The notes under the pieces: model-generated
Seen by the model: the letters and a program-made list of their open reading frames with translations, nothing else
Told to the model about the DNA's origin: nothing
The model's database searches: none
Shown here: one piece after another, positions 3,581-42,060 of the stretch
How the letters are laid out: each line of letters opens with the position of its first letter
Numbering within the stretch: position 1 is the stretch's first letter
IMG/VR virus record: IMGVR_UViG_3300030430_003035
Coordinates: 1-53,130 of that record
Source: a virus
Taxonomy: Duplodnaviria > Caudoviricetes
DNA length: 53,130 nt
Direction: 5' to 3' (one strand)
Translations under genes and position numbers: made by a program

Positions 3581-3757
3581 AGCGTTGTTATTCTTTTTCT
3601 GATTTGTCTTGAGGTATGTCTTTGACCTCACCAGTTTTAGGGTCAATTACCACTAATTTCTTTCTTGATTGCTCAGTCTTTACAGTGAAAAGACCGAGCG
3701 GTGTTACATTTGATTTACTCATATTAATTCCATTTTTTATTAAATCTATGTTATTGG

Positions 3758-4654: not shown

Positions 4655-4711
4655 AAGCATAGTTGTGCGGTGTTATCCTCTCGCACTCTTGAGTTTGGTT
4701 AAACTATTATT

Positions 4712-10164: not shown

Positions 10165-10169
10165 AACAA

Positions 10170-10186
10170 CAAAGATAGTATATTTG
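10170..10186. promoter_or_regulatory. Back-to-back divergent TAnnTTTG promoters
   Basis: Minus TATCTTTG (10177-10170) 5 nt before ATG 10164; plus TATATTTG (10179-10186) 4 nt before ATG 10191. Confidence 0.75.
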
Positions 10187-10190
10187 CAGT

Positions 10191-14370: not shown

Positions 14371-16467
14371 ATGGCAGGACTTGTAGAAATAGAGGAGGAA
14401 ATAATTGTCAATATATGTCCTGACAAAACCTCTGGTGTTGTTAAAGATTTTTTTGACTTATCTATACAGTTGCCAAAATCCCCTGCTAAAAAAGAAATAC
14501 TATTTTACGACAAAGCGAAAGAAAATCAGTATTGGACAAGAGAGGAGTTGCCAGATGATTTACGGCGGATTAAATCCATGGAAGAATGGATGGAAATGCC
14601 AGAGGTGTTTCGTAAAAAATACACACCCTATATTACAGAAGAATTTAAAAGAAGAAGAAATGGAGTATGGTTTTACAACAACGGGGTGCCCACATACATT
14701 ACAGGAAACCACTACTTTTTCCTTCAGTGGTGTAAGATTGATATCGGATACCCATCTTACCTCGACTTTCAAAGGAAGTTGTACATACATCTTGAGGCCT
14801 GTGTAAAAGACCCAAGGTGTATTGGTCAGATATACGTAAAGTGTCGTCGATCTGGATACACGAATATGTCTGCATCTGTGCTTGTCAATGAGGCAACACA
14901 GGTAAAGGAGAAACTGTTAGGCATTATGTCCAAGACAGGTTCGGATGCTCAAGAAAATATATTTATGAAAAAGGTTGTGCCTATGTATAAGTCACTTCCT
15001 TTTTTCTTTAAACCTATACAGGATGGTACAACAAACCCCCGTATGGAGTTAGCCTTCAGGGAGCCTTCAAAAAGAATAACCAAGAAGAACAAAACCTCAT
15101 CCCGAGGAGAGGCTTTGAATACTATTATCAATTGGAAAAACACCACGAACAATGCTTATGACGGGGAGAAACTACACTACCTATACATGGATGAGGCAGG
15201 TAAATGGGAAAAAGGTAATGATATACGAGAAGCATGGAGAGTACAGCGCACTTGTTTGCTTGTAGGTAGAAAGATAGTTGGAAAAGCATTAGTAGGAAGT
15301 ACAGTTAATCCGCTAGATAGGGGTGGAAAGCAGTACAGAGAAATGTACTATGCAAGTGATGTAAAAGAAAGAAACGAAAACGGAAGAACCAGAAGTGGTT
15401 TGTACGGTGTGTTTATACCATCCTATGAAGCACTAGAAGGTTTCTTTGATATTCATGGGATGCCTATTATTGAAGACCCAGAAAAAACAATTATAGGTAT
15501 TGAAGGAGAGGATATAAATATAGGTGCAAAGACCTATTTAAAAAATGAGCGAAAGGGATTGAGTTCTGACTCTTATGAGTTAAACGAGGTTATCAGACAG
15601 TTTCCCTTTACAGAAGCAGAGGCTTTTAGAGATAGCGCTAAAGCATCTTTGTTTAACGTTCAGAAAATATATGAGCAAATAGAATACAATCAAGACCTGT
15701 ATCCTTCACCTATAGTTGTAGGAAATTTTAACTGGATGAACGGAGCCCAAGATACACAGGTAAAGTTTAGCCCAGATCCCAACGGAAGATGGAGAATATC
15801 TTGGATGCCTCCCTTGGAACTTAGAAATAAAACAAAACCAGAAAACTCTTGGCTCGGATGTGCAGGAGTGGATAGTTATGATATTGATGCAACTGTAGAT
15901 GGAAGAGGCTCAAAAGGTGCTTGTCACTTTTACAACAAGTTCAATATGGCTCATCCATCAAATATGTTCGTTGCAGAGTATGCGTCTCGACCTCCGTTGG
16001 CTAAAATATTTTATGAAGATATACTCATGGCTGCTAAGTTTTATGGATATCCGGTATTAATTGAGAACAACAAATACGGTATAGCAAGGTATTTTGAATC
16101 AAGAGGATACAGCCACTTTCTTTTAGATAGACCTGAACATTTGACTTCTAGTTATGGAAGCAAAACAAAAACAAAAGGCATACCGTCAAACAGCCAAGAT
16201 GTAATACAGGCTCACGCGCAAGCCATTGAATCTTACATACATGCACACGTTGGGTTAAACGAGAATACATTAGAGTTTGGCAAAATGTATTTTGAAAGAA
16301 CTTTAGAGGATTGGATTAATTTTAAAATAGATGACCGTACAAAATATGACCTTACGATATCTGCGGGGCTAGCATTGCTAGCGGCTCAGGGCGATAAGCC
16401 TCAAAAGCCAAAGTCTGATTTTAAATCAAAACAATTCTTCAGAAAAGGTCAGATAATTTTAAGGTAA
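14371..16467 (+). CDS. terL: Terminase large subunit
   Basis: Walker A-like KCRRSGYT, Walker B YMDEAGKW, GST coupling motif, RNase H-type GVDSYD and KYD. Confidence 0.92.
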   Translation: MAGLVEIEEEIIVNICPDKTSGVVKDFFDLSIQLPKSPAKKEILFYDKAKENQYWTREELPDDLRRIKSMEEWMEMPEVFRKKYTPYITEEFKRRRNGVWFYNNGVPTYITGNHYFFLQWCKIDIGYPSYLDFQRKLYIHLEACVKDPRCIGQIYVKCRRSGYTNMSASVLVNEATQVKEKLLGIMSKTGSDAQENIFMKKVVPMYKSLPFFFKPIQDGTTNPRMELAFREPSKRITKKNKTSSRGEALNTIINWKNTTNNAYDGEKLHYLYMDEAGKWEKGNDIREAWRVQRTCLLVGRKIVGKALVGSTVNPLDRGGKQYREMYYASDVKERNENGRTRSGLYGVFIPSYEALEGFFDIHGMPIIEDPEKTIIGIEGEDINIGAKTYLKNERKGLSSDSYELNEVIRQFPFTEAEAFRDSAKASLFNVQKIYEQIEYNQDLYPSPIVVGNFNWMNGAQDTQVKFSPDPNGRWRISWMPPLELRNKTKPENSWLGCAGVDSYDIDATVDGRGSKGACHFYNKFNMAHPSNMFVAEYASRPPLAKIFYEDILMAAKFYGYPVLIENNKYGIARYFESRGYSHFLLDRPEHLTSSYGSKTKTKGIPSNSQDVIQAHAQAIESYIHAHVGLNENTLEFGKMYFERTLEDWINFKIDDRTKYDLTISAGLALLAAQGDKPQKPKSDFKSKQFFRKGQIILR

Positions 16468-16477
16468 TAATAATCGG

Positions 16478-16485
16478 TATATTTG
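16478..16485 (+). promoter_or_regulatory. TAnnTTTG promoter box
   Basis: TATATTTG between terL and portal. Confidence 0.65.
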
Positions 16486-16505
16486 CAATTGTAGCAATCT
16501 TGAGT

Positions 16506-18938
16506 ATGAACACAGAATATAAAAACGGACAATCTTCATTTCCAGATCCTTTGGCCTCAACAAAGGAGAAGATGTGTCAGCCATACGGCCTTCAATATGC
16601 TAAGGCTATGTATGCTCAGTGGATTGGTAGTGATTATCAAAACTCTTTGTATGGAAGAAGAAACAGCGAGTTTGAGAGATGTAGAGATTACGCTCAAGGA
16701 ACTCAGGACACATCAATCTACAGACAAATATTAAACTCACTTAATCCAAATAACGGAGATGGAACTTTACTAACATTAGATTATACTCCAGTTCCTATTA
16801 TTCCAAAGTTTGTTAAGATTGTAGTAAATAAGATTCTATCAAGACAACCTTATCCACAGTTAGAGGCAATTGACCCTCTGTCAAAATCAGAAAAAGATAA
16901 AAAGAAAAACGCTACGATATTACGTATTGAGAATCGCGAAATGATAGAGGAAGCGAAGTCTCTTGGTTTAAAAGTAAAAAAAGACCCTGAATCCTTACCG
17001 GACACACCAGAGGAAACTGAGATATTCTTAGATACGAATATTAAAACAGATGCAGAGGTATCAGCACAAATTGCTACAGAGATGACCTTAAAGTGGAACG
17101 ATTTTAATCAGTCCATTTATCGTCGATGTGTTGAAGACCTATCAGTTTTAGGCATGGGTGTCGCTAAAAGAACTAACGACCCAAACTACGGAATCAAAGA
17201 AGAATACGTAGACCCAAAGAAGTTCTTGCATAATTTTACTGAAGACCCAAACTTCAATGACTTAACATACGCAGGTCACTTTAGACATATAACTATTATG
17301 GACCTAAAGCGTATTGCAGGTAATCAGTTTACAGAGGACGAGTATCGAGAGATTGCTAAAACCGTAATGAACAAGTACGGAAACAATCCAACTCAGTTCT
17401 CTACCACAGGTTCTACTTATGATAGACCGGGAACAAGATATCGTCAAGGGTATGACGAATACAAAATTGAAATACTTGACTTTGAGTTTATGTCTGTTGA
17501 TGACATTATATACGAAAAGAAAGAATCTGCTTACGGTAATATTGGTTTTTATTATAAAGGAAACGAATACAACGCACCTCAACAATCTGTTTATGATAGA
17601 GAGGCTGTTTATATGAAGAATGCAACAGTATATGGGGGCTGCTACATTATCGGAACAGAGCACTTATTTAACTATGGTCCAAAGAAAAATATTCCTAAGA
17701 ATGTTCATGATATATCTCGTGCACGTTTGTCTTACAGTATTGTAGCGACTAATATCAGAGGAATGATTCCAAAGTCTATGGTTTCCTCTGTAATAGGGTT
17801 TGCTGACATGCTTCAGATTACACACTTAAAAATTCAGCAGTCTATAGCCAAAGCAAAACCAGATGGTTTGATTATTGACATTGAAGGATTAGAGAATGTA
17901 CAATTAGGCCGAGGTGCAGAACTACAACCTCTTGAGATTCAAGACATATATGAACAAACTGGTGTGTTCTATTATCGTAGCAAAAACCCAGAGGGCGGAT
18001 TCCAAAATCCTCCTGTTCGTGAGATAGGTAATAGAATTAGAAACATACAAGAATTAGTTACTCTATATAACCACTATCTAAGAATGATTCGTGATGCTAC
18101 AGGAATCAACGAAGTAATGGACGGCACCACACCTAAAGGAGAAGCACTTGTTGGTGTAAATCAACTGGCGATTCAGGCAGGTAATAATGCTATATACGAC
18201 ATCACAAACGCAGCATTAGTTCTTTACAAAAAAGTATGTGACGATATAGTAAGATGTGTTCAGGTTATTCCATCGGAAAGCATTCTGTACAAAACGTATG
18301 CAAATGCAATAGGAGAAACCAACATGGCTGTGCTATCTTCTTTTGATAATCTATCCATGTACAACTTTGGTGTAATGGTGGTGACGGAGATGAATGATCA
18401 GGACAAGCAGTATCTTGAGCAAAACATTCAAATTGCACTCGGTCAAAAAGAAATAGACCTTGAGGACGCCATAGCGATTCGACAACTAAAAGATGTTGAT
18501 CAGGCAGAAAGATTATTGGTTGTTCGTCGCAAAAAGAGAATCAAGCAGGCACAGCAGCAAGCACAGCAGCAGGCTGAATTAACAGCACAAATAAATGCGC
18601 AGCAAAGTCAAACTTCTGCTCAAATGGAGATGCAGAAAAAACAGTTAGATGCGCAGATAGAAGCACAAAAAATACAATTAGAATCACAGGCAAAAGCCCA
18701 GTTGATTCAACTAGAATACCAGTTCAAGATTCAAATAGAAAAAATGAGAGGAGAGTTTGGTGTTGTAGAGCAACAGATAGAAAGCGGAAACAGAATGGCT
18801 ACCGAGCAGGAGGCAGAAAACAGAAAGGATCAGCGCATTAACAAACAAGCGTTGGCCCAAAGCAAACTGATAGCGCAGCGCAAAGGAGAAAGACCGCCGT
18901 TAGACCAAGATATAGTAACCAACCTAACCATAGATTAA
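16506..18938 (+). CDS. Portal protein
   Basis: ~810 aa after terL; PVPIIPKFVKIVVN and TGINE motifs; Q-rich C-terminal coiled coil. Confidence 0.88.
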   Translation: MNTEYKNGQSSFPDPLASTKEKMCQPYGLQYAKAMYAQWIGSDYQNSLYGRRNSEFERCRDYAQGTQDTSIYRQILNSLNPNNGDGTLLTLDYTPVPIIPKFVKIVVNKILSRQPYPQLEAIDPLSKSEKDKKKNATILRIENREMIEEAKSLGLKVKKDPESLPDTPEETEIFLDTNIKTDAEVSAQIATEMTLKWNDFNQSIYRRCVEDLSVLGMGVAKRTNDPNYGIKEEYVDPKKFLHNFTEDPNFNDLTYAGHFRHITIMDLKRIAGNQFTEDEYREIAKTVMNKYGNNPTQFSTTGSTYDRPGTRYRQGYDEYKIEILDFEFMSVDDIIYEKKESAYGNIGFYYKGNEYNAPQQSVYDREAVYMKNATVYGGCYIIGTEHLFNYGPKKNIPKNVHDISRARLSYSIVATNIRGMIPKSMVSSVIGFADMLQITHLKIQQSIAKAKPDGLIIDIEGLENVQLGRGAELQPLEIQDIYEQTGVFYYRSKNPEGGFQNPPVREIGNRIRNIQELVTLYNHYLRMIRDATGINEVMDGTTPKGEALVGVNQLAIQAGNNAIYDITNAALVLYKKVCDDIVRCVQVIPSESILYKTYANAIGETNMAVLSSFDNLSMYNFGVMVVTEMNDQDKQYLEQNIQIALGQKEIDLEDAIAIRQLKDVDQAERLLVVRRKKRIKQAQQQAQQQAELTAQINAQQSQTSAQMEMQKKQLDAQIEAQKIQLESQAKAQLIQLEYQFKIQIEKMRGEFGVVEQQIESGNRMATEQEAENRKDQRINKQALAQSKLIAQRKGERPPLDQDIVTNLTID

Positions 18939-28690: not shown

Positions 28691-31600
28691 ATGCCGAGAA
28701 TAGATAAATTACTTCCTCGCTCTCTAAATACAGACGACGATGAGCGCCTAATAAAGTCCACACAGATGACAGATGCGCAAAATATCCGTGTGTCTGTTGA
28801 TGTTGAGGAGGATGCTCTTGTATTAAAAAACGCTTGGGGAAACACGCTTCGTTCTTCATCAATTGAAAACGGTAGCATGCCTTCAGGTGTTAATGTAGCG
28901 ATTGGCGCTGTAGCAGACGATGCTTCTGCTCAGATTTATTATTTTGTATATAATGGCTCTAACAATCACACGATATTTAGATACGATCAGAATGCAAAGA
29001 AAACATTCATCGTTTATCAAGATGCTGTATTAAACTTTTCAAAAGAGGGGTTCATTACAGCGAGCATTGTAACGCTGTCTAACAACGATACACTTTTGTA
29101 TTTTAATGATGGTGTTACAGAGCCTAAAAAGATTAACGCTACTATTGCAGAACAAACCTTTTCGGGAGTAGGGGGATATGACTCTACGTTTAGCAGTGGC
29201 ACCGTTCAGGAAAGAACCAATTATATTACTGTTGCAAAACAGCCACCTCTTTCTCCGCCGACTATATCATTCTCTACAAATACAAAGTATTCCCAAAATG
29301 ACATATTTGATAAGAACTTTCAGTTTGCTTATCAGTACGTATACTTTGATGGAGAGCATAGCGCGCTTAGTCCTTATTCTAAATTGTCTGTATCTGACAA
29401 TCAACTAAAAGATGGATTTTTAACTTTTGAAGAAAGAACAAAAAAGAATCAAATAGACATAACTGTTAAGCAGTCTAATCTTGATGTAAAAGAAATAAAC
29501 GTTTACGCAAGGCTTGGTGATAAAGATTCTGCATTCTTTTTAATCGAAACCATTGATAACAATCATGGAACTGCTGATGTTGTAGTTCCTTTTAGAAACG
29601 AGTCTAACTACATAGGACTATCAGCATTAACTCAAGATAAGTTTTACGACAACGTCCCTCAAAAAGCAGATAGCCAAGCAATATCGCAGGGTAGACTTTT
29701 CTATGGGGGATACACAGAAGGGTATAACAATGTTGACATAGACGCTACAGCGGTTCCTAATTACTATGCAAAGCCTGATACTTTTTCTATACAGGTGAAT
29801 AAGTTTGATGACGAACTTGAAAAAGGTGCAGGTATAGAGATAGATTTGTCCTCTTTGCCGGCAACAGTAGAAACTGATTCTAAGGTTTTGTTATCGTTCT
29901 CATTTAATGATGGTGCGATAATGATTACAAACGAGTTAGGAAAAAATAGAGACTTTACGTTTTTCCGTAGTACAGACACTAGTGAGATTAGTGTTAATAG
30001 AAACAAGACTGGCGGACTCAGCCTAAACTTAAGTCAATCAAATAAACTTGAGGCGCTGTCAGGTCTTAGATATAAGATTGTTACTTCAGGAGCAACTGCA
30101 GGCGCCGGCGGAAATGAGGTTGGTCTAAATGTTGAGGGGACATTAAATGGTCCTCCTACAATTAGATTTGCAGTTCAAAAAAATACCTCAGACACCAGAG
30201 AAGACATTGTGCCCATAAGAAGAATAGATGATGGGATTAAACTTATAAGCAGTGGAATTCAAGTAAGAAAAGTTTTAGAAATACCCGCAGGCACTACATT
30301 AGATGGGGTGATGACAATTATCTCTGAGGAACTGAACGGTTTGTATCCGATTCAATATTCTCCTCAAGCAGGAGAGGCGGGCTTCAGTGGTTTCCGTACA
30401 GGTGGGGATACTTTAGCAAATGAAGAGACAGGAGCGTTTTTTGGATATGGGGATGTTTGGCTAAGAGAGATAAATAGGAATGAAAATCCAACTACCGGAG
30501 CCACCGCTGCAGGAAAAATGTACTTTAAGTTATCTATAAGTAAAGCAACATTAGCCTTAAACAAACTAACATTTGGAACTAAACAGGCTGAGGTATTAGA
30601 AGCAGACGGAACAAGTTCTCAGTTTGATATTATAGAAGCAAACATAAATGGTTTACTATCTGCTATACCTACGTTTTCTAGAATACCTAACATGCAAGGA
30701 CGATTTATCAGCAATCAGGCATATCAGCATGGAAAAGGCGCTGTTGTAAAAAGAAACGGTTCTTATGTAACTCAAGGAGGCAGTTTCTTGATACAGGAAA
30801 GCGACATGGAAGGAAATCGTGCTTTTAAATCAGGTGCATCTCATGAGTTTGGAATCATATATTATGATGATAAAGGAAGACCGTCAGGGGTTCAGCCTTT
30901 ATCTGAAGACCCATTTATTGAACATACCAATAACCGATCTGGAGAAAACAATCTAGATGGTCGGGCGGATATAGTTTTTAGAATCCTAAAAAACGAGGCG
31001 CCTGAATGGGCAGAGAGATACGGAATAGTATATGCAGGACAAGGTTCCATAAAAAATAAGTTACAGTATTCTATAGGAGGAGCGTATCTTGCTTTAAATG
31101 ATGACACACAAGGTTCTTTTGGTTCTGCTAAAACAATATACCTTTCCTTAAACACACTTCAAAGCAAAGCAAATTCTTACGATAATCAGCAAGGAGCACT
31201 TATTAATTATGGATTCGCAGAGGGCGACAGATTAAGAATTGTTCGATATGGTGATGATGTAAAAAGCACAGCAGATTTTAGAATATCAAGATTTGATACT
31301 CTTTTAGCGGATATTAGCACCAACCCTCTTTTAGACAGAAGTTCAAAGGCAGCAATACAAAATACTACCGGAGACTTTTTAGTTATTGAAGATAACGGAA
31401 CAGAGGGCTTTGACATAAGCAGTATTCTTGATGGAAACTCTAACTGGAACAATAAGTGTGTTGTAGAGATATACAGAGAGTCAGATGCTTTTGAAGAAAC
31501 ATTCTATTATCAAATAGGTGAAAACAGAGCGGTAAATAGTGACCGAACACATCAAAGCGAAAGGGTAACTAGCACAGGTATAAACTCTAAGATAATATCT

Positions 31601-33772
31601 CAAAGCGGAGACTCTGTAGTAATAGAAACCCAAGAAAAAGTATACAAAGGTGACCTTATGGACATCCAAGGCAACGGAGTATTTTCTGCACAAGTGGGCA
31701 ATGTTTCTGATAATCCTAGCACAGATGGATACTCCTACAAGGTGTACTTAATAGATAGAACTGCAACATATACACCCGGTGCTACTTCAACGTCAGGTGC
31801 TATAAGCAATCCAGATGTAGTCGTTCAGTTTAATCAAGGGGACTCTTATTATAGATTAAGAACCTTGTACTATGGTAGTGCCCCGAGAAAAGGAGACGTT
31901 TGGAGAAACATGGCTCAGGCCTTTAGTCAAAATGCAATTGTAGACTTTATAGAAGACCCACGTGTAAGTGATTTTTATCCTTCAGAATTTTGTTCTTTAG
32001 GAAAGACTTTTGCTTACCTGCCTGATGCAAAAAGAATTAAAAGGTACGGTTCAATAACATACTCAGACCCGTTTGCATTTGAGGCTAATAAATTAGGTCT
32101 TTCTTCTTTTAACATTACTACACAAAACTTTAAAGACTTATCATACGATTATGGGTCTTTAAAATCACTGATTCCTTACGATGAGTTCTTGTATGTAATA
32201 CACGAGCGCAGAAGTGGAATCATTCCTATAGGCAGAAACATACTTACAGCGAACGATGGAGAATCACTAACTGCTACAAATAAGGTTGTAGGTCCAGTAA
32301 AATATTATGTAGGAGAATACGGGGTAAACAACAATCCTGAATCTGTGGCTTACTATAGGGGTTCAGTGTTCTTTGTTGATGCAAAGGCAGGAAAGGTTCT
32401 TAGAATTAACTTCCAATCAGGGATGTCTATTATTAGTGAAATTCAAGTAGACTCATTCTTTAAGAGTAAGATGTTTGCTACAAGCACATCTGCTAAAAAT
32501 AGAAGGTATAGAGCGGGGATGGATAGGGAGAACTATGAATACATAATAAGTTCCCCTGCTTTGTTTACATCAGCGCTTAGTATTGACAACACCTGTGCTT
32601 CTACTACAGCGAGCGGAAACGGAAGAACGAATAGCGGAGGCACGATTATTAATGTAACCGCTGTATACGATAACTCTCTGACGTTTGATTTTAATAACGA
32701 CACAAGAAAATGGGAGTGCTCAGAAGAAAACTGGGAAGACTCAGGTAAAGCAATGGTTTTAATAGACCAACTTACCAATAACCCAATCGTAGGAATATCA
32801 GAAGATTTATCTCCCGTTGTTACTGGTGCTAATGCAAACATTCCTACACTAATGACTTCATCTGCTTATCAAGCATTCCATACAGGAGTGTATAGTCAAA
32901 GTACAGAGGAGATAACTCCAAACACAGGATTATCAGGTTCTTCATTTACCATAGCAACCCCTAGTGAAACACTGCCTTCATTTACCATCGCTTATGATGT
33001 TAGGTCTAACTTCTGGACTACAAGGTATTCGTATATAGCAGAGGAGTTTGCAGGTCTTTCTGATCGTATATACACATTTAAAGATGGTGCTATTTATGAA
33101 CACAATCCTAGCGCTAACAGAAACACATTCTACGGAGTTGCAGGAGATAGTATTATAGAGTGTATATCTAACTTTAATCCATCTATGGTAAAGGCTTATG
33201 AGGCTATAAGTTTAGAAGGAAATAACTCAAGTTGGACAGCAACTCTTTCAAACAGCGACCAAACAAGCACAATAGCGTCTTCTATATGGGAAGAAAAAGA
33301 AGGGTTTTACTACGGTGCTATTCATCAAGATTCAACCAATAATGTGGACTATACGGCAACTGCTAATATTAGTTCTGTTAGCGGAACCTCTGAGGTGTTT
33401 GGCTTAGGAAGTGTTTCTTCTATTACGGGATCAGACGCTTTTATAACATTTAAAAACACAATAAACAACATGAGTTTCCCGCTAGGTGTTACTACGGCGT
33501 TGTTTAAAATCAGTGGTTCTAATTTAGTCCCATTACAGCGATATGCTGTATCAATAAATAGCGAGAAAAAATTGGAGTGCAATGCGACGATTACAGGTCT
33601 ATCAGCAGATGACCAAATAGTTTTAATTGCAAACTCTGCAATTGAAGGAGATACAATTAGAGACTACTATTTAAAAGCAAAACTGGTTAACTCTTCAACT
33701 TCAGCGCATGAATTGTATGCGATTAATTTTATATATAATAAGTCTAATCTACACAACCAACAAGGAAAGTAG
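28691..33772 (+). CDS. Tail nozzle/muzzle (P22 gp10 or tubular B-like) protein
   Basis: LNTDDDERL..DAQNIRV start, EPKKIN, FAYQY, FKSG..HEFGI.YYD..GR and YG..NPES motifs. Confidence 0.78.
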   Translation: MPRIDKLLPRSLNTDDDERLIKSTQMTDAQNIRVSVDVEEDALVLKNAWGNTLRSSSIENGSMPSGVNVAIGAVADDASAQIYYFVYNGSNNHTIFRYDQNAKKTFIVYQDAVLNFSKEGFITASIVTLSNNDTLLYFNDGVTEPKKINATIAEQTFSGVGGYDSTFSSGTVQERTNYITVAKQPPLSPPTISFSTNTKYSQNDIFDKNFQFAYQYVYFDGEHSALSPYSKLSVSDNQLKDGFLTFEERTKKNQIDITVKQSNLDVKEINVYARLGDKDSAFFLIETIDNNHGTADVVVPFRNESNYIGLSALTQDKFYDNVPQKADSQAISQGRLFYGGYTEGYNNVDIDATAVPNYYAKPDTFSIQVNKFDDELEKGAGIEIDLSSLPATVETDSKVLLSFSFNDGAIMITNELGKNRDFTFFRSTDTSEISVNRNKTGGLSLNLSQSNKLEALSGLRYKIVTSGATAGAGGNEVGLNVEGTLNGPPTIRFAVQKNTSDTREDIVPIRRIDDGIKLISSGIQVRKVLEIPAGTTLDGVMTIISEELNGLYPIQYSPQAGEAGFSGFRTGGDTLANEETGAFFGYGDVWLREINRNENPTTGATAAGKMYFKLSISKATLALNKLTFGTKQAEVLEADGTSSQFDIIEANINGLLSAIPTFSRIPNMQGRFISNQAYQHGKGAVVKRNGSYVTQGGSFLIQESDMEGNRAFKSGASHEFGIIYYDDKGRPSGVQPLSEDPFIEHTNNRSGENNLDGRADIVFRILKNEAPEWAERYGIVYAGQGSIKNKLQYSIGGAYLALNDDTQGSFGSAKTIYLSLNTLQSKANSYDNQQGALINYGFAEGDRLRIVRYGDDVKSTADFRISRFDTLLADISTNPLLDRSSKAAIQNTTGDFLVIEDNGTEGFDISSILDGNSNWNNKCVVEIYRESDAFEETFYYQIGENRAVNSDRTHQSERVTSTGINSKIISQSGDSVVIETQEKVYKGDLMDIQGNGVFSAQVGNVSDNPSTDGYSYKVYLIDRTATYTPGATSTSGAISNPDVVVQFNQGDSYYRLRTLYYGSAPRKGDVWRNMAQAFSQNAIVDFIEDPRVSDFYPSEFCSLGKTFAYLPDAKRIKRYGSITYSDPFAFEANKLGLSSFNITTQNFKDLSYDYGSLKSLIPYDEFLYVIHERRSGIIPIGRNILTANDGESLTATNKVVGPVKYYVGEYGVNNNPESVAYYRGSVFFVDAKAGKVLRINFQSGMSIISEIQVDSFFKSKMFATSTSAKNRRYRAGMDRENYEYIISSPALFTSALSIDNTCASTTASGNGRTNSGGTIINVTAVYDNSLTFDFNNDTRKWECSEENWEDSGKAMVLIDQLTNNPIVGISEDLSPVVTGANANIPTLMTSSAYQAFHTGVYSQSTEEITPNTGLSGSSFTIATPSETLPSFTIAYDVRSNFWTTRYSYIAEEFAGLSDRIYTFKDGAIYEHNPSANRNTFYGVAGDSIIECISNFNPSMVKAYEAISLEGNNSSWTATLSNSDQTSTIASSIWEEKEGFYYGAIHQDSTNNVDYTATANISSVSGTSEVFGLGSVSSITGSDAFITFKNTINNMSFPLGVTTALFKISGSNLVPLQRYAVSINSEKKLECNATITGLSADDQIVLIANSAIEGDTIRDYYLKAKLVNSSTSAHELYAINFIYNKSNLHNQQGK

Positions 33773-33781
33773 ATAAAGTAG

Positions 33782-33789
33782 TATTTTTG
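33782..33789 (+). promoter_or_regulatory. TAnnTTTG promoter box, 4 nt before ATG
   Basis: TATTTTTG-CATT-ATG. Confidence 0.7.
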
Positions 33790-33793
33790 CATT

Positions 33794-34598: not shown

Positions 34599-36278
34599 AT
34601 GGCCGATACATCTACATTTATGTCCATAGCATCGTCAATTCCTGACGTAGATTATGGTGCAATATACAGAAACGCAAAATTAAGAAGGGAACTTGAGGAA
34701 GAAAGAAAACTTCGATATTTAAACCAATTCCAACAAGAGCGGGGTTCTTTTACACCCGGCATGCAGGATGAGTTGCAGGCTGAATGGGATGCTATTGAGG
34801 CTGACTTAGATTCAGGGGATATGTCTTTTAAAGCAAAGGCTAGAAGACAACGTATGTATAACACATACAAGGACCACGCTGCAAATGCTTTGAACTACTC
34901 TACTGCGATTAATAACATTGAATCAACTGTACTAGCAGACCCCTCTGCATATAATGACCCTGCTGATATTCTTCAGCAACTACAAACTGCACGTGAGTTA
35001 AACATTCCAGTTATTGGTTTTCAGCAAGCGATTGATGAGTTGCCAAAGTTAGCAAGTTTAAGAAGATATGCATTAACAGAAATATCTCCTAATGCCGCAG
35101 CAGGTTCTATTTTACAGAATTTAAAAACCTCTGGGGGCATCAATAGGTTTTACGATACCGAGGAGTCTGGTGAGATAAACCCACAAGCAATACAAAATTC
35201 TGTTGGTGCTTGGTTTAATGCAAATGCTCTTTCTCAAGAAGAAGAAGATCAGGCAATCGCTTATGTTATGCATCAACAAGGTGCGCTTGACGGAACAATG
35301 AAAGATATTTCATCACTTAAAAATCTTTCTGATGACGCTAGAGCACAATATATTGGTCAATATGCAGGGTATGTGACTACTGCATTAACCAACATGCTTG
35401 CTAGCGATATCGAAACTGAAAAAGAGAAAACACAAAGAGACCTAAACACTTATAGAACTAAAGCAAGAATTACAGCACAAGAGAATGCTGCTGCTCGGTC
35501 GGCTTCAACACCTGATATATTTACAGCGATGATAGGAGATGTACAGTACTCTCCTCCTTTAACTCCAAACGAAAGAGGGCAAATAGTAAAAAGAGAAGAG
35601 CCAAATGCAGTGAGCGCAGGAATGGATGTGCATGCCCTAATAGAAGGTACTCAGCCTTCATATCTTGCCCAAGACGGAACTCAATATTTTATTGAGTCTA
35701 TCGGTATAAATGATGATGGAAGAGAAGTCGCTGTAGTTAGATTCAACCAAGACGTAATAACCGGCAAAGCAGACAAGGACAAGCATGTTGCTCGTACTCT
35801 GGTTTTTGCAGATGAGATTCCATTAACCGGATTAAGCAATGCAAGTCAAGGGGAAAAAATAAGAGAAACCTATAAGGCCATGCTTCCTTATTGGTCAAGA
35901 AACTTTGCAGGAAGACAAACTCAGCCTGTTAACCAAGATGGTCCAGGTTTAACAGAACAGAAAATAGAACAAGGAATTTCTGATATTGCTGATCTTGTTT
36001 CAGGATTAGGACCAACTCAAGATGTACCTCTCCCCCCTGAAGGTCTTCCTTTTAACGTACAAGCAACTACAATACCAAGGCCGACTTATTTCCCTGAGTT
36101 AAGTTATGGAGACTGGATTGCATTAGGAAAAAGAACAGGAGGCCACTCTAATGCTATAACAGAATTAGTTAGACAGCAGTACGGAAGGATTGCCTCTTTG
36201 ACTCCACAGGAAAGAATAGAGGCTCGTGCTGATATCAAGAAAAAACTTTCAGAGCAATTCGGAATAGATATTAAATAA
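34599..36278 (+). CDS. Ejection/cargo protein 2
   Basis: Helical 559-aa protein between cargo genes. Confidence 0.55.
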   Translation: MADTSTFMSIASSIPDVDYGAIYRNAKLRRELEEERKLRYLNQFQQERGSFTPGMQDELQAEWDAIEADLDSGDMSFKAKARRQRMYNTYKDHAANALNYSTAINNIESTVLADPSAYNDPADILQQLQTARELNIPVIGFQQAIDELPKLASLRRYALTEISPNAAAGSILQNLKTSGGINRFYDTEESGEINPQAIQNSVGAWFNANALSQEEEDQAIAYVMHQQGALDGTMKDISSLKNLSDDARAQYIGQYAGYVTTALTNMLASDIETEKEKTQRDLNTYRTKARITAQENAAARSASTPDIFTAMIGDVQYSPPLTPNERGQIVKREEPNAVSAGMDVHALIEGTQPSYLAQDGTQYFIESIGINDDGREVAVVRFNQDVITGKADKDKHVARTLVFADEIPLTGLSNASQGEKIRETYKAMLPYWSRNFAGRQTQPVNQDGPGLTEQKIEQGISDIADLVSGLGPTQDVPLPPEGLPFNVQATTIPRPTYFPELSYGDWIALGKRTGGHSNAITELVRQQYGRIASLTPQERIEARADIKKKLSEQFGIDIK

Positions 36279-36282
36279 AATT

Positions 36283-39200
36283 ATGAACCACGAAAAACTA
36301 TTACAAGCACTTGAAGATGCTTATAACAAAGGTGTAACCTTTGAGCAAATGCAAGGAAAACTTAGTGATGAAGTATTGGTTGTCGCTGAAGATTTTTTTT
36401 CAAAAAAAAAAGCCAGTACCGAAGATTCTCAAATCGCCAGTCCTTCGGTATTAGTATCAGAGCCTTCGGTAAGAAGTACGGGTTCACTCTCTACTCAACT
36501 CGAATCTGACTCTCAGGCGATTAACAAAGGGCTTCTTGATGCATTAGAAGGAGCAAAGAATAAAGGGATAGGTCTTGATCAGTTGCAGGCAAAACTATCT
36601 CCAGAGGTTTTTAATATAGCACAGCAGTATTACGGCACACTAGATTCAGAAAGACCTCATACTCGTACCATGAGGGAGCACCCTTTGATTATAGACGACA
36701 ACCCAAGCGAAATAGGTAGACTCTGGAATCGAGCAGTAGCAGGAGGTATCCTTGCTAATGAGATAGCAATGGGTGAGCAAAGCCAAGCGGGTATGGATTA
36801 TGAAAAGATTGCATACTTAAACAGCATTATACAAAGAGATGCTGTGCGAGATTCAGATTATTTATACGATGAATCAGGAAGCGCTGTAGATGATTTTGTA
36901 TTAGATGTAATACGAACAATACCTGAGTCCTTAATCTCAATGGCTACAGCGATTAAACCGGGTATTGAAGGCCTCGCTGCAGGTGTCGGTGTAGGAACAG
37001 GTGTAGGTTTAGCCGGTGGTCCTCTTGCAGGTATAACTGTTCCTGTTGCTGCAGGTGTCGGTGCAACTTCAGGATACTTTGGGGCAACCTCTCTTGCTTT
37101 AGAGTATGGTCATTCTATTATGGATGTTCTTAGAGAGGAAGGTGTAGATGTAACAGACCCGCAGGTATTGGCTGATGCTGTAGAAAACGAGCAGATAATG
37201 AAGAAAGCCAGAAGCAAGGGATTAAAGAGAGGTATACCTATTGGTATATTTGATGCTGTTTCCGGTGGCGTAGCAGGTAAGATTGGTAAAACAGTAGTAA
37301 AATCAGTAAGTAAATCTGCAAGAAATCAAGCAGCAAAGGTACTTGCAGCAGAAACATTAGTACAAGCGGGTCTTGGTGGTGGTGGTGAACTGACAGGTCA
37401 ACTTGTAGCAGGAGAAGAAATCCGTCCACGAGACATTGCTTTAGAGGCGTTCGCTGAGATAGGTCCTGCCGCACCTGTGATGGCTTACAGGCTTGCGGGA
37501 AGGATAGGGAAAACTCCCGGAGAAATAGGATACATAGATTGGGCTGAAACACAAAACCAATCAGACTTAAAAGATGCAAATGAAGTTGCCTTTCTTATAA
37601 ACAACGGAGAGATAGCAAGCATTGATAACGAAATAGCCAAACTAAGAGAGTCTCAACAAAAAGACCCTACTGTCAAAAAAGCGGTAGAAGGAAAGATTCG
37701 CAGGTTACGAGATGAAAAGTACGACCTACTAAGAGACTTATCTGAACAGGTATTAAAATTAGACGAGCAACAAAAAATACAGGCAGCAGAACTGTCTAAA
37801 GAAATATATACAGCGGCAGAGGTTTTAAGAAAAGCAGATAACCTTTCAGTAGAAGAACAGGCTGCTATTGAGGAAGAAATGCAGTCAAACTCAAAAGCAT
37901 TAGACGATTTAGTAGCCGCTAAACCAAGACAAGTAAGAGATGATCAGGAAGATAGGGCCGAAGAAGTACCGGGTACTCAGCAAGAAAGGCAAGAACTTGG
38001 GGACGTACCCGAGTCGCAAACAAGCAGAGCAAAGGCTCAGATTAGTGGAATACTTCAAGCGCGCGAGGAAGACCTAGGGCGCAGTTCAAGACACATTAGT
38101 ATTAATCAGGCTCGTCAAAAGTTTGAAGGAAACAAGAAAGGTTTCTTTAATCTATTTGACAAGAACGATGCAGGCGCTCTAAGACAAATGCTTGATGAAG
38201 GAGTATATCCAGACGGCACAAGAATATCGCCTCTCGAGCAACGTACTCTTGCAAGATTAATTCTTGCAAGTGAGTCTATGCTTAAACTTGAACCTGATGC
38301 CGCTGTTTTTAATGTTGGCTTTGGAAGAAGAGGGTATAAGAAAGCCGGTAAAAATGCAGGATTTGCTTCTAATCAGTTAAAGGGCAGTGCAGCAATCACA
38401 TCTGGTTTTAAAAGAGAAAAAACTGATGTTCCAAACAAAATTGCAGTTGAAATACCTTTAAAAGAAAGCACTCTTGAGGGAAGAGGAACACAAGATAGAT
38501 TTACACCACAAGGCGCAGCATACCATGAAATATATCACAACATTTTTGCAAAGTTTTTTAATGGCAACCCAATTGATTTCAATCAGTTTAGAAAGTTAAT
38601 TGTACGCAGACTCAAGGAATCCAATGTAAAAGAATTAAATGCTTTTACGAATAGGTATTTAGAAAGAGAAGATGAAACTAGCGCGGGAGCCTATAGGTCT
38701 GAAGAGTTTATGGTTGAACTTGGAGGTCTACTTGCAGATGAACGTATTGCTTTTGAGCCTTCTTTTTTAGAAGAAGTAAAGGCTTTTTTAAACGCTGTAG
38801 TTGGCAAACTTACAGGACAACGTGTTCAGATTTTTGAGGACGCTGCTCTTGCTAAAGACCTTGCTGCTTATATGACCGGACTTGCAGATACGGTTCGTGC
38901 AGGCGGAGACCTTAGTCAGGTAACTATGTCTGAAAGATTAAAAACAGATAGATTTCAAAGAAGAAGACCAGAAACAAAAGAAGTAACAGAAGTTGATGAG
39001 TTTGGATTTGAAAAGCCTACTGGAGAAATGGAGACAACACCAAGCGAGAATGTTGCGGGTATTCCAGATCCCGAGAACTACGACAAAACGCTTGACCCTT
39101 TGGAAAAAGTTCTTGGGTTTATTAAGCCAAGAATGGAAAACTTTCTTAAAAGACTTGAGAAAACATTAGGGGTAGACAGATTAAGAGCCACACGTCGTGA

Positions 39201-42060
39201 TGTATTACAAGCACTAGAGGTTTCCGAATCAATTAATGTACAACATATCAACAGATTTTTCTTAGCGCTACGTCAGGTAAACAAAATCACAAATAAACTT
39301 TCAGATTCTGAACGAGAGCAGGCGGCAAATCTTGCTAACGATTACTTGTTTGGAGAAAACAATGAGATACGAGAATCAGCCCTTAACGACTTAATAAAAA
39401 TAAATCCAGAGTTGGCAAATCAACTTGGAAGATTGCGAGCAGTGCGTGCGTCTATGCAAGAGTCTATTCAGAACAGTTCTGTGTTTGCAAAACTAAGCAC
39501 AGAATTACAGGATGTAATCATAGATAATACAGCGAATTACGGTACAAGAACTTATCGTGCGTTCACTGACCCGAACTTTAAGTTTGACCCCAAGTTACGC
39601 AGAGCCGCGTATAAGGCAATGATAGAAGGCAAGATAGCAGAAAGGGGTTATGATATTGACGAGAACATGACTGAAAAAATTGAACGGGAGATGAGAAAAA
39701 ATGACCTTGACCCCACGAATATGGACGATATTTTTCGTTATGTTGAGTTTAATGAAAAAGAAATAAATGCCATAAGAAAAAGCGCAAACAATGCCTTGAG
39801 GGCTCTTGAGGAAGCGGCTGAAAAACAAAAAGGAAGTTACGGAGAAGGGCTTTCAGGTTCTAGAGACTTAGGTAAAATGAGAATACCTACAAAAAAGTTA
39901 CGAGAAAGAAAAGACCTTCCTGTAGAACTAATGGATTACCTTGGTGTAGAGAAAGACCCTTACATCAAGTTTAGTCAAACCATTGCTACGCTGACAAATA
40001 TGGTGCAACAGTTTACGCTTACAGATAGGGTAAACGAAATCGCACAGCAAAGCAATCTTGGAGATTTGATTATCACAAAAAGTGTGATTCAAAAACTTGA
40101 AAAGGACTTGCTTTCGTTTTCAAAACTTGTAGATTTAGGGAGAGACACTGGGCTTATACAAAAAGGAGAAAGTCTTGTAGATTTTTACAAAAGAGTTGGT
40201 TTAGATGAACTTGTTGATCAGGATGGAAACCGAATCAAAGACAGCAAAGCAGAAAGAGATGGGATGTATTCGGCTGTATACGATTACTTCAAGAAAAACT
40301 ACACTGTAATTACAGAGAAAAAATCACCAATGAACGGTAAGGCAGTGAAGAATGACTTCGCAGGTATGCTTAAGCAGACTCCGCTGTATCAATCTGACAG
40401 CAAAGCACTACAGGCGTATTATAAACTGCTTTTGCAAATGCGTAGAGTACGTGTCCTGTATAACCTACCGACATGGAGAAAGAATATCATGGGTGGTTGG
40501 TACTTCTTGGGTGCTAACTTCGTATTGCCTTACAACAAACACAGAGGAGGCCTTACTGTAATGAAAGATTTACAGAATCGTTTTAAGAAAATGAAAGATG
40601 GTGTTGCAGACCCTGAAGTAGAGACAGTGTTAAACAGAATGGGGGAACTTGGGCTTCTTGGCTCATCTCCAAATATGGGTTTGTTTACAGATATTAATCA
40701 ATCTTTTATAGACCAACTCAATGGAGTGTCTCCAGAGGTTGCTTGGAAATGGTTGCCTGAAGGATTAAAACAAGCACAGAGAAAGATGGGTACCCGTGCT
40801 GCACGTATTGCCTATCAGTATGGATTTATTGATGATTATACCAAGATGATTGCATACCTCACGAAACGTGAAAACTTTGCAAAAAGACTAGCATCTAATC
40901 CAGAAGGTAAATCATACGGTGAATTAAGCGCATCAGAGCAACAGCAAGTAGATGAGATGACAGCAGAGCGCATTAAACAGAACATGCCTACGATGTCTCG
41001 TATTCATCCTGCTTTTAGAAACTTATTTAAAACACCTTTCGGAGACTTCTTGTCTTTCCGTGTTGAGGCGTTCCGTAGTTTCTTTAGTATATATAAAAAT
41101 GCAGTTGCAGATTTAAGCGAGGCAATGACTAATCAGAACCTCTCAAAATCTCAAAGGTCTGCTTTTATGACCGATGGGGTTGGCTCATTAACTATGGGTA
41201 TATTGCTTGCAGGTGCCTCTACAATGGGTTATCAAGCGGTAGCAAATTTAATTTTAGAAGACGATGAGGAGGAAGAACTTGGCCAACAAGCGAGAGGTAC
41301 CAATTATATTCTCCCCCCTTGGATGCAGGGCTCTAATATTGTCGCTGTAGATATGGATGACAAGGGAAAGATTCGTTTCGCAAACATCAGTTCAGAAGAC
41401 CCCTATGATGAAATACAGGGGCTTATTTATGGTCGTGAAGGAATATCAAGAAACAAGACCCTTACAAATATTGCTCAGGATTTCAGTGACCCTAACCTTG
41501 CAGCGAGACTTCTGTTTAATTTAGCAGACGGCAAGGATTCTTATGGAAGGCCAATACTCAACAATCAAGATGTTGGTTGGTTTAACAGATACGTTATCGG
41601 GCCATCATTAACAGAGTGGTCAGACGCTTATGGGTCCTATATATTTAAGGAAGCATTCGTGCCTCCAAATATTAATTATATCGCTCGTGAGTTTCGTAAG
41701 CGCATAAAAGAAGCAGAAGAAAATCCAGACATAGAACTGCAACCATTAGAGACAGCAGCACAATTGTCTACAGCGATTATCTTCCGTGACTATCCTGTAG
41801 ATATAGCAAAGCAATTTTACTACAACATGCAGGACCAAAACTTCCGTGAGCCATACACCGAACTAACAGAACCACAAAAAGTAAACAGACAGGCAAGGTT
41901 AGACGAAGTTAAAAGAGCCTACGAGTTTGCAGCAAATTACTCAGCAAAGTTTGATAATTTTAATATTGTGAAAAGCGTAGAGAGAACGATTAAAAGAACG
42001 TTTTCCAAGAGCCCAGAGGAAGAAATGTACATTCTGTACGACATAGAACTTCCTAACTAA
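36283..42060 (+). CDS. Large ejection/cargo protein with zincin-like HExxH metallopeptidase motif
   Basis: 1925 aa; Gly/Ala hydrophobic segment, AYHEIYH...SEEF, duplicated N-terminal module. Confidence 0.68.
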   Translation: MNHEKLLQALEDAYNKGVTFEQMQGKLSDEVLVVAEDFFSKKKASTEDSQIASPSVLVSEPSVRSTGSLSTQLESDSQAINKGLLDALEGAKNKGIGLDQLQAKLSPEVFNIAQQYYGTLDSERPHTRTMREHPLIIDDNPSEIGRLWNRAVAGGILANEIAMGEQSQAGMDYEKIAYLNSIIQRDAVRDSDYLYDESGSAVDDFVLDVIRTIPESLISMATAIKPGIEGLAAGVGVGTGVGLAGGPLAGITVPVAAGVGATSGYFGATSLALEYGHSIMDVLREEGVDVTDPQVLADAVENEQIMKKARSKGLKRGIPIGIFDAVSGGVAGKIGKTVVKSVSKSARNQAAKVLAAETLVQAGLGGGGELTGQLVAGEEIRPRDIALEAFAEIGPAAPVMAYRLAGRIGKTPGEIGYIDWAETQNQSDLKDANEVAFLINNGEIASIDNEIAKLRESQQKDPTVKKAVEGKIRRLRDEKYDLLRDLSEQVLKLDEQQKIQAAELSKEIYTAAEVLRKADNLSVEEQAAIEEEMQSNSKALDDLVAAKPRQVRDDQEDRAEEVPGTQQERQELGDVPESQTSRAKAQISGILQAREEDLGRSSRHISINQARQKFEGNKKGFFNLFDKNDAGALRQMLDEGVYPDGTRISPLEQRTLARLILASESMLKLEPDAAVFNVGFGRRGYKKAGKNAGFASNQLKGSAAITSGFKREKTDVPNKIAVEIPLKESTLEGRGTQDRFTPQGAAYHEIYHNIFAKFFNGNPIDFNQFRKLIVRRLKESNVKELNAFTNRYLEREDETSAGAYRSEEFMVELGGLLADERIAFEPSFLEEVKAFLNAVVGKLTGQRVQIFEDAALAKDLAAYMTGLADTVRAGGDLSQVTMSERLKTDRFQRRRPETKEVTEVDEFGFEKPTGEMETTPSENVAGIPDPENYDKTLDPLEKVLGFIKPRMENFLKRLEKTLGVDRLRATRRDVLQALEVSESINVQHINRFFLALRQVNKITNKLSDSEREQAANLANDYLFGENNEIRESALNDLIKINPELANQLGRLRAVRASMQESIQNSSVFAKLSTELQDVIIDNTANYGTRTYRAFTDPNFKFDPKLRRAAYKAMIEGKIAERGYDIDENMTEKIEREMRKNDLDPTNMDDIFRYVEFNEKEINAIRKSANNALRALEEAAEKQKGSYGEGLSGSRDLGKMRIPTKKLRERKDLPVELMDYLGVEKDPYIKFSQTIATLTNMVQQFTLTDRVNEIAQQSNLGDLIITKSVIQKLEKDLLSFSKLVDLGRDTGLIQKGESLVDFYKRVGLDELVDQDGNRIKDSKAERDGMYSAVYDYFKKNYTVITEKKSPMNGKAVKNDFAGMLKQTPLYQSDSKALQAYYKLLLQMRRVRVLYNLPTWRKNIMGGWYFLGANFVLPYNKHRGGLTVMKDLQNRFKKMKDGVADPEVETVLNRMGELGLLGSSPNMGLFTDINQSFIDQLNGVSPEVAWKWLPEGLKQAQRKMGTRAARIAYQYGFIDDYTKMIAYLTKRENFAKRLASNPEGKSYGELSASEQQQVDEMTAERIKQNMPTMSRIHPAFRNLFKTPFGDFLSFRVEAFRSFFSIYKNAVADLSEAMTNQNLSKSQRSAFMTDGVGSLTMGILLAGASTMGYQAVANLILEDDEEEELGQQARGTNYILPPWMQGSNIVAVDMDDKGKIRFANISSEDPYDEIQGLIYGREGISRNKTLTNIAQDFSDPNLAARLLFNLADGKDSYGRPILNNQDVGWFNRYVIGPSLTEWSDAYGSYIFKEAFVPPNINYIAREFRKRIKEAEENPDIELQPLETAAQLSTAIIFRDYPVDIAKQFYYNMQDQNFREPYTELTEPQKVNRQARLDEVKRAYEFAANYSAKFDNFNIVKSVERTIKRTFSKSPEEEMYILYDIELPN
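37940..38077 (+). CDS. Nested +1-frame 45-aa basic protein (MIRKIGPKKYRVLSKKGKNLGTYPSRKQAEQRLRLVEYFKRARKT)
   Basis: Translated by hand; resembles the small MIRK...GKNLGTY..R..A..RL..VEYFK family; host frame is low-complexity here. Confidence 0.7.
   Translation: MIRKIGPKKYRVLSKKGKNLGTYPSRKQAEQRLRLVEYFKRARKT

Follow-up and report, generated by a model that had tools for sequence, protein, structure and literature searches.

In phage lambda, Rz1 lies in the +1 frame of Rz. The Rz/Rz1 spanin genes represent an embedded phage gene architecture, in which the two products are the subunits of one lysis complex (PMC5295617, PMC6139136), while in classic overprinting a new short open reading frame (ORF) is born inside an old gene (PMC8227390, PMC3494269). 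A related arrangement is found in the virus record IMGVR_UViG_3300030430_003035 (Duplodnaviria; Caudoviricetes), a 53,130-base metagenome-derived record rated as 98% complete, hereafter called the window. Positions 37940-38077 of the window very probably constitute a functional protein-coding gene, situated wholly inside, and one base off the frame of, a giant internal-virion ('cargo', polyvalent-type) gene at 36283-42060. The locus shares with lambda Rz/Rz1 the form of an embedded pair, in that a small phage gene provided with its own start is fully contained in a larger same-strand gene, in the +1 frame, with both frames apparently coding. Unlike in Rz/Rz1, the larger gene here is of the giant virion or cargo type, a functional link between the two products is established for the lambda pair, and the embedded gene belongs to a family that occurs mostly outside overlaps and would predate the overlap, which was lost again in one clade. 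As in overprinting, one DNA stretch encodes two proteins in different frames, one of which is phylogenetically restricted; here, however, the short ORF is the old and widespread reading, while the restricted one comprises a linker and a helix of the giant gene. The overlap observed here appears old, polarised and recurrent, and was lost once.

Two further systems bear on the giant gene. Polyvalent proteins, with their 'LPD' domains, are virion-delivered multidomain proteins (Iyer et al. 2017, PMC5512222), the domain repertoire of which matches the Pfam partners of the small family described below. Similarly, the domain of the small family occurs in frame in giant multidomain proteins with Zeta toxin, lysozyme, ART-PolyVal and peptidase-type domains, and the host gene in the window carries an invariant HExxH motif. 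The terms 'frameshift' and 'overlapping' are absent from the main text of PMC5512222, while its supplementary domain lists, which lay outside the search, may name the small domain. In phi-crAss001, the genes that follow the muzzle gene code for cargo proteins, which are kept within the capsid and the tail and are ejected (Bayfield et al. 2023, PMC10172136). The window resembles the crassviruses in that a gene with a match to the muzzle C-terminal domain is followed by several large genes, but differs from them in genome size (53 kb as opposed to about 103 kb) and in that no similarity of the giant protein to the named crAss001 cargo proteins was detected in the searches made. No nested gene is mentioned in the available text of PMC10172136, and no description of the nested gene or of the small domain was found in the literature covered, with subscription papers and supplementary domain lists being outside its scope.

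The nested frame and its protein family

The nested ORF extends on the + strand from an ATG at 37940 to a TAG at 38075-38077 and encodes a 45-residue peptide, MIRKIGPKKYRVLSKKGKNLGTYPSRKQAEQRLRLVEYFKRARKT, which by hand count contains 16 basic residues (nine Lys and seven Arg) and two Glu, giving a net charge of +14. Its start lies 1657 bases downstream of that of the 1925-codon ORF (37940-36283 = 1657; 1657 mod 3 = 1), placing it in the +1 frame, and the coordinates, exact translation and frame given in a preliminary description of this DNA were borne out by direct reading. An ORF of such length alone proves nothing, as ORFs of this size are frequent in alternative frames, with 17 of at least 30 amino acids present in the six frames of the surrounding 2 kb (37000-39000). 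The evidence beyond chance is provided by homology rather than by ORF length.

A word-indexed search of 5.8 billion proteins yielded five candidates, all of them significant, 43-46 amino acids long and 59-78% identical to the nested peptide over 89-96% of the query, with the best match being a 44-residue protein (78% identity, E 3.2e-12). An exhaustive HMMER search of 1.84 billion representatives recovered 380 clusters at E <= 1e-3, the matches spanning residues 1-2 to 41-44. By these similarities the nested peptide is a member of a large phage family without a name, defined by a basic domain of ~42 residues with the consensus MIRKxxxxxYRVxSxKGKNLGTYxxxxxAxxRLRQVEYFKH. The invariant or nearly invariant columns of the family (I2, K4, V12, S14, G17, G21 in the GKNLG loop, A29, R32, L33, E37, F39 and K40) are all present in the window peptide. 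The preliminary description had likened the peptide to stand-alone small phage proteins with a motif MIRK...KNLGT[YF]...VEYFK; this motif agrees with the family consensus, and stand-alone homologs exist both among the database proteins and as loci in viral contigs. Close relatives keep the frame free of stops, one sister clade having secondarily lost the motif, and the outcome that the preliminary description named as its refutation (an absence of homologs together with stops in close relatives) was thus not observed. Weak matches of the family were obtained to PHROGs 3684 (phrog_3684, E 4e-4), 2859 and 13335.

The family domain may stand alone or be placed at the N-terminus, at the C-terminus or internally, the last in proteins of as many as 2273 amino acids. 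Mid-protein copies in frame occur, for example, in proteins of 992, 996 and 2273 residues, while in the T4-like Citrobacter phage IME-CF2 the domain forms the in-frame C-terminus of a 207-residue protein. The Pfam partners observed among 60 larger members that were scanned are Phage_lysozyme, SLT, Zeta_toxin/AAA_33, DUF5661, DUF5662, DUF5872, His_Phos_1, CTP_transf_like, Peptidase_C39 and PG_binding_1. In the 2273-residue protein (P0113), residues 926-966 form an in-frame copy of the small domain, and a short FDPxQ(P/L)RDEDGKW-type motif recurs several times between the modules; the protein matches no Pfam family at E <= 1e-5.

AlphaFold2, supplied with a 40-row alignment, confidently predicts a fold of three beta strands (residues 2-6, 9-13 and 19-23) and a C-terminal helix (26-44) for the nested peptide, with a pLDDT of 94.5. 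Phage models in BFVD with a matching fold gave TM scores of 0.75-0.91, comparing prediction with prediction, and include proteins labelled as ART-PolyVal, 'Large polyvalent protein associated domain' and XkdF.

Selection in the nested frame

Relatives of the giant gene were gathered from viral and metagenome contigs, with the giant protein or the small family serving as the query. An intact +1 ORF was found at 33 loci, which correspond to 24 records (the window counted), 13 distinct DNA sequences and 8 distinct peptides. In all 13 distinct sequences the start (ATG or GTG) is kept at the same codon and the stop (TAG or TAA) is also kept, and the carriers encode giant proteins ranging in identity to that of the window from 100% down to 45%. 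The latter value applies to relative L008, in which the giant protein is 45% identical over 1366 aligned residues and the nested peptide keeps 33 of its 45 residues.

The differences between the window and its relatives within the nested span are distributed over host codon positions 1, 2 and 3 as 15, 5 and 6 (relative L007) and 23, 14 and 8 (L008), as opposed to 272, 159 and 654 and 596, 426 and 809, respectively, over the whole giant gene (chi-square p = 1.4e-4 for L007 and 1.2e-3 for L008). The substitutions are concentrated at host codon position 1, which is the wobble position of the nested frame. Simple pairwise Nei-Gojobori estimates over the 45 codons, uncorrected for the overlap, give proportions of nonsynonymous to synonymous differences (pN/pS) in the nested frame of 0.109/0.489 and 0.186/0.834 for the window against L007 and L008, a ratio of ~0.2, as compared with 0.202/0.143 and 0.354/0.229 in the host frame of the same bases, a ratio of >1. 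Across the 13 sequences, 17, 17 and 32 variable sites fall on the first, second and third nested codon positions, and amino-acid columns are variable in 20 of 45 cases in the nested frame as against 35 of 46 in the host frame.

A scan of third-position identity along the giant gene, using 1302 sliding 40-codon windows in a 7-genome codon alignment, peaked in the segment starting at host residue 553 (0.89, against a mean of 0.47 and a standard deviation of 0.10), which is the first codon overlapped by the nested ORF. Natural variants were taken from contigs of four further sequencing runs belonging to three studies, the codons being read by hand. All three variants located in the nested ORF (37999, 38005 and 38066) leave the small protein unaltered but alter the giant one, and five of the six flanking variants outside it are at host third positions. 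Purifying selection is thus shown to act on the nested frame across deeply diverged relatives. Frame-specific conservation, which the preliminary description had put forward as a check, is evident in the substitution pattern, pN/pS, the third-position peak and the silent variants alike. Its claim that the gene is still translated is strongly implied by this frame-specific purifying selection, translation itself being an indirect conclusion.

Loss of the nested gene in a sister clade

The closest relatives of the window, L001 (on the same contig as L004 and L009), L005 and L006, with protein identities of 82-85%, have an 18-nt deletion and an ACG in place of the ATG of the window, together with a shifted ATG and a frame that is still open. 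The family motif is gone from their +1 reading, while the giant gene is retained, and substitutions in the span follow the host frame (7, 9 and 19 at host codon positions 1, 2 and 3). In a FastTree phylogeny (LG+gamma, 955 gap-free columns, nested span excluded, rooted by choice on the most divergent relative L008), this clade is sister to the window plus L003 with a support of 1.000 and lies inside the lineages that keep the gene. As the decayed clade is nested inside intact lineages, the absence of the nested gene represents a secondary loss.

Decay of this kind, with the deletion, the shifted ATG, the lost motif and a frame left open, is what would be seen if the nested ORF of the window were a non-functional relic, that is, a small gene recently swallowed, unexpressed and intact only for lack of time. 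The ORF is, however, intact in 24 records among which the host proteins have diverged to 45% identity, the nested pS of 0.49-0.83 against a pN of 0.11-0.19 points to long survival under constraint, and the decayed clade is a late branch among intact lineages. A relic is at odds with this selection pattern and is considered very improbable.

The host frame and the origin of the overlap

The giant gene is placed in the late structural block, on the same strand as and downstream of the terminase, portal, virion and muzzle-like genes, a position of the polyvalent type. The order on the + strand is large terminase (14371-16467), portal (16500-18938), several 'virion structural protein' PHROGs and a 1693-residue muzzle-like protein (28691-33772), downstream of which follow ORFs of 267, 559 and 1925 amino acids. 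The C-terminus of the muzzle-like protein matches the crassvirus muzzle domain PF25729 with 30.3 bits against a cut-off of 27, which denotes a resemblance to Crassvirales-like phages rather than a taxonomic placement of the window. Neither the giant protein nor its two upstream neighbours matched any family in Pfam, PHROG or NCBIfam, and Megablast of the giant gene against phage records gave no match. Residues 255-334 of the giant protein match both the giant ORF24 of Xanthomonas phage CP2, located after 'internal virion protein' genes, and a giant ORF of Limnohabitans phage DC33, while residues 1200-1708 show a match of 21% identity to a Pseudoalteromonas phage protein annotated as an ADP-ribosyltransferase. 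The HEIYH motif of the giant protein (Table 1), for which there is no Pfam match, could mark a peptidase module of the zincin type, comparable to the MPTase found in polyvalent proteins. The designation 'giant cargo gene' used in the preliminary description is a fair label by position and partial homology, the gene being known here from its sequence alone.

Over the nested span, the host frame translates as DDQEDRAEEVPGTQQERQELGDVPESQTSRAKAQISGILQAREEDL. This stretch had been described as a Q/E/R-rich linker. In an AlphaFold model of host residues 481-680 this holds for the first half, which is linker-like (pLDDT <50), but not for the second half, which is predicted to be helical. The host-frame alignment is variable at the linker, with indels just upstream. 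The equivalent of the host frame is stop-free in only one of 46 distinct non-nested copies of the small gene, and since it is so rarely open, the open giant frame in the 24 records is maintained and not accidental. None of the six differences seen in PESQTSRAKAQI among the relatives without the nested gene alters the host-frame residues. By these observations, both frames are under selection and the second half of the overlap is truly dual-coding.

A different view would make the small domain part of the giant protein, with ribosomes shifting +1 near 37940 and back near 38075, so that the mature cargo protein would contain the domain in frame, as is the case for many polyvalent proteins. The same domain does occur in frame in larger ORFs at 46 of the best 80 loci and, for example, in the middle of the 992-, 996- and 2273-residue proteins, and the giant gene holds a conserved slippery A10 run elsewhere. 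Two efficient shifts would nevertheless be needed, while a slippery motif is conserved at neither end, and a +1-frame stop precedes the ATG by 2 codons in the window, 5 in L007 and 7 in L010. The start and stop coincide exactly with the boundaries of the stand-alone family in 13 of 13 sequences, and the maintenance of a host frame so seldom open would be pointless were the span bypassed. Such a double frameshift appears slightly less credible still than a relic.

The proposal that a pre-existing gene was absorbed into the large ORF agrees with the distribution of both genes. The small family is far more widespread than the giant gene, and the Xanthomonas and Limnohabitans phage relatives of the giant gene are without a nested copy, which argues for the small frame as the older of the two readings. 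The linker-plus-helix reading of the giant gene would then have been superimposed on it. This could have come about by gene fusion across the small gene, by its insertion into the linker, or by an in-frame domain being knocked out of frame. Whichever route was taken, several stops had to be purged, given that the host frame is open in only one of the 46 non-nested copies. The idea that absorption is easy, as the alternative frame of a Lys/Arg-rich gene would naturally be stop-free, was rejected on the same count.

Other genomic contexts of the family

In a search of viral contigs, 398 of 460 candidate stretches encode a relative of the family. Among the best 80 of these 398, the family member is an in-frame part of a larger ORF in 46 cases, stands alone in 10 and is overlapped by a same-strand ORF of at least 150 amino acids in 24. 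The overlapped loci comprise 21 relatives of the giant gene of the window, one locus termed L092, and two (L076 and L081, on contigs of 235 kb and 107 kb) under a 203-codon ORF. In the last two the member, at 2501-2623, lies in a 62-residue open frame and the overlapping same-strand ORF extends over 2104-2712.

L092, in a 48-kb record (G002) with terminal repeats, contains a 44-codon family member nested in the +1 frame of a 1365-codon ORF. In the latter, residues 326-470, directly after the nested gene, match the ART-PolyVal domain (PF18760, E 4.3e-15). No similarity between this giant ORF and the giant protein of the window was detected by BLASTP (best E 0.73), and hhalign aligned the two only over the stretch that the nested gene occupies (E 0.029, probability 1.7%). 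The idea that the L092 giant gene is a diverged homolog of that in the window was accordingly dropped, although a lack of detected similarity is no proof of an independent origin. Genes in L092 have clear Shine-Dalgarno motifs, and upstream of its nested ATG there is an AGGAG, separated from it by the six bases TAAAAT, which is the best sequence evidence for separate initiation of a nested copy.

Among the stand-alone copies, that of L073 (2416-2541) lies between the large terminase (917-2416) and portal (2545-3984) genes, its start overlapping the upstream stop, and that of L097 (2501-2623) overlaps the last ~100 bases of a portal gene (1045-2604). The copies in L061 and L079 are found just upstream of portal or adaptor genes, and that in L060 upstream of virion structural genes.

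Table 1. Positions of the nested gene, its giant host gene and associated features. Coordinates are those of the window, except for the last row.
Feature	Position	Strand	Remarks
Nested mini-protein gene	37940..38077	+	ORF, translation, homologs, selection in its own frame; AlphaFold2 fold
Putative internal initiation region	37920..37939	+	20 bases, A-rich, weakly structured, no Shine-Dalgarno motif
Giant host gene, 1925 codons	36283..42060	+	'Cargo'/internal-virion-protein position, third after the muzzle-like gene 28691-33772
Predicted disordered inter-domain linker, host residues 547-579	37921..38019	+	pLDDT <50; over the first half of the nested gene
Predicted helix, host residues 577-595	38011..38067	+	Blocks of mean pLDDT 80-86; overlies the helix of the nested protein
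HEIYH (HExxH) motif, host residues 748-752	38524..38538	+	H748, E749 and H752 invariant in 6/6 aligned homologs
L092 nested member, host residues 268-312	2501-2635 inside 1702-5130 (= L104 2299-6393)		

Proposed initiation and possible function of the small protein

Separate translation of the small protein is envisaged, with ribosomes probably initiating internally on the late giant-gene mRNA at the nested ATG (GTG in some relatives), and the product would thereby be made together with the cargo proteins. Initiation may proceed via a start region that is rich in A and unstructured, as is used by hosts poor in Shine-Dalgarno motifs (probably Bacteroidota). Indirect evidence of independent translation comprises the interchange of ATG and GTG at the start, this accessible region and the AGGAG motif in L092. 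The A fraction of the start region in the window is 0.55 against a host-gene mean of 0.35, and the minimum free energy (MFE) of positions -30 to +30 amounts to -4.5 kcal/mol, the mean being -9.0 kcal/mol. Seven of seven lineages show this trend, with A fractions of 0.45-0.65 as compared to 0.31-0.35 and MFE values of 0 to -4.5 as compared to -9 to -10.7 kcal/mol. Shine-Dalgarno-like 4-mers were found at only 5 of the 36 listed ORF starts of the window, and the scarcity of such starts, together with kinship to Flavobacterium phage genes, suggests that the host is probably a member of the Bacteroidota.

Strings resembling TA..TTTG occur upstream of several starts in the window, namely at 10166-10190 (tagtatatttgcagt ATG), 33769-33793 (tagtatttttgcatt ATG) and 16475-16499 (ggtatatttgcaattgtagcaatc TTG), with a spacing of 4 bases before the start, or ~14 bases before 16500. 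These strings resemble Bacteroidota -7 promoter elements, which would imply very short or absent leaders. A pattern search with fixed spacing, TANNTTTG-N7-ATG, gave 0 matches.

A conserved nucleic-acid element, such as an RNA structure or a packaging or regulatory site, would leave much the same conservation of host third positions with no second protein involved. The variation nonetheless shows a 3-base periodicity in the nested frame (17, 17 and 32), the peptide is homologous to hundreds of proteins in other genomic contexts, there is less structure around the nested start than elsewhere in the gene, and an Rfam search of 36200-38400 gave no match at E <= 1, so that such an element is regarded as a distant prospect, below both the relic and the double frameshift. 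A chance ORF or an assembly artefact, with contig frameshift errors displacing an in-frame domain, might be suspected in any metagenome-derived record, but is already refuted by independent assemblies, given the same frame arrangement in 24 records of different data sets and contigs of four further sequencing runs (three studies) free of insertions and deletions, and its probability is practically negligible.

Returning to a separately initiated small protein, the product may tentatively be regarded as a small basic virion-associated protein, either nucleic-acid-binding or a portal- or cargo-associated accessory, a guess that is rather doubtful. The version favoured, at the same low odds, is a strongly basic protein associated with the head that would bind nucleic acid or tether cargo. 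The guess is prompted by the stand-alone copies adjoining terminase, portal and virion genes and by the fused copies on enzymes of virion-delivered types. Comparison of the small protein with DNA-binding folds of the AP2 or lambda Int N-terminal type gave Z-scores of 4.9 (2gcc), 4.1 (2wcc) and 4.0 (7et4), which are in the background range of the tool, and sequence-profile comparison to structures of these types gave no match. A profile of the small family against PDB sequences reached a best E of 0.12, with no fold assigned, and matches in the ESM Atlas are only unnamed clusters of 45-49 residues.

Several observations count against a functional, separately made protein, or against the role suggested for it. 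Neither a Shine-Dalgarno site nor a promoter was seen upstream of the nested copy in the window, the A-richness of the start region is partly confounded by the Lys-rich beginning of the ORF itself, and no RNA run containing the stretch was listed. The pN/pS values bear the overlap-uncorrected limit given with them above. The loss in the sister clade (three records) indicates that the small protein is dispensable in some backgrounds, and no second copy of the small gene is present in the 22-kb record of that clade, which is 40% complete. As regards function, which rests on genomic context only, no convincing match was found among solved structures (Foldseek best E 0.79; VIA-align best Z 5.7, in the noise range of the tool). 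Pfam, LPD models included, gave only IF3_N at E 0.076, below threshold, while NCBIfam gave nothing for the window peptide and, for a relative, eS8 at E 0.017, far under the cut-off.

Further candidate small coding features in giant virion genes

A second, unrelated family of nested small ORFs was encountered in a distant giant gene of an uncultured podovirus, MW202828.1. It comprises 43 codons, starts with MPFKSK and lies in the +1 frame (L100 4845-4973), at the place equivalent to that of the nested gene in the window. The same family occurs at 76% identity in 68 Flavobacterium Elemovirus records, under a 'structural protein' CDS of 3694 codons in cultured phages (L101 3001-3126 = NC_062741.1 53458-53583), again in the +1 frame (3661 mod 3 = 1). 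The host proteins of MW202828.1 and the Elemovirus phages are alignable only around the nested ORF. In viral contigs, this second family is nested in +1 at 78 of the best 80 loci (L105-L184), in ORFs of ~390-410 or >1200 amino acids, and the differences at nested codon positions 1, 2 and 3 number 8, 7 and 16. Neither Pfam nor PHROG gave a match to it, and the window does not contain it. The available text of PMC7077304, on Baltic Flavobacterium phages, makes no mention of elemo, overlapping or nested.

Near the beginning of the giant gene of the window, a TCA10G sequence (TCA AAA AAA AAA G; A-run 36402-36411, host residues S40-K43) follows just after a T8 run (36393-36400) and is present in 12 of 12 relatives examined. 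Past the A10 run, the -1 frame (region 36402-36509) encodes a conserved basic tail of 32 residues, KKKSQYRRFSNRQSFGISIRAFGKKYGFTLYSTRI* in the window, which ends at the same stop in 11 of the 12 relatives, while L029 stops earlier. In this region host codon position 2 is the most variable (16, 27 and 20 at positions 1, 2 and 3), and the second-highest peak of third-position conservation in the gene is found here. The A10 run looks like a candidate site for programmed -1 frameshifting or transcriptional slippage that would give a short product, predicted to have 75 residues (40 from the N-terminus of the giant protein plus the -1-frame tail), processes for which general background is available (PMC5009743). 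A hairpin after the run was not significant (z -1.57, with 18 of 200 shuffles folding as well).

Implications

The nested gene appears to encode a real, selected protein that is missed by gene callers, being fully enclosed by a longer same-strand ORF, and this would hold for a whole clade of abundant marine phages. It represents a rare, clearly polarised overlap, in which the embedded gene is ancient and widespread and the giant reading would have been superimposed on it. As the overlap has persisted, has either arisen twice or been transferred to an unrelated giant gene, and has been lost once, it offers a natural system for the gain and loss of dual coding. An uncharacterised and very common phage mini-domain (380 clusters) is furthermore tied to virion cargo and packaging modules, which provides a first testable context for it. 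From the side observations, giant virion genes may commonly encode small products that are nested or recoded. One such case is located in cultured Flavobacterium phages, while no cultured phage with the first family in its nested form was found.

The same gene nested in +1 in two dissimilar giant genes, the second nested family and the conserved A10 run with its -1 tail together raise the possibility, at somewhat less than even chances, that a hidden second layer of coding is the rule in giant genes of the internal-virion or polyvalent type, in marine and freshwater podophages with hosts that are poor in Shine-Dalgarno motifs and probably belong to the Bacteroidota. This layer would consist of small basic virion-associated proteins that are encoded where cargo genes have inter-domain linkers and that are produced through internal initiation or slippage. 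If this is true, the dosage of these small proteins would be tied to that of the cargo.

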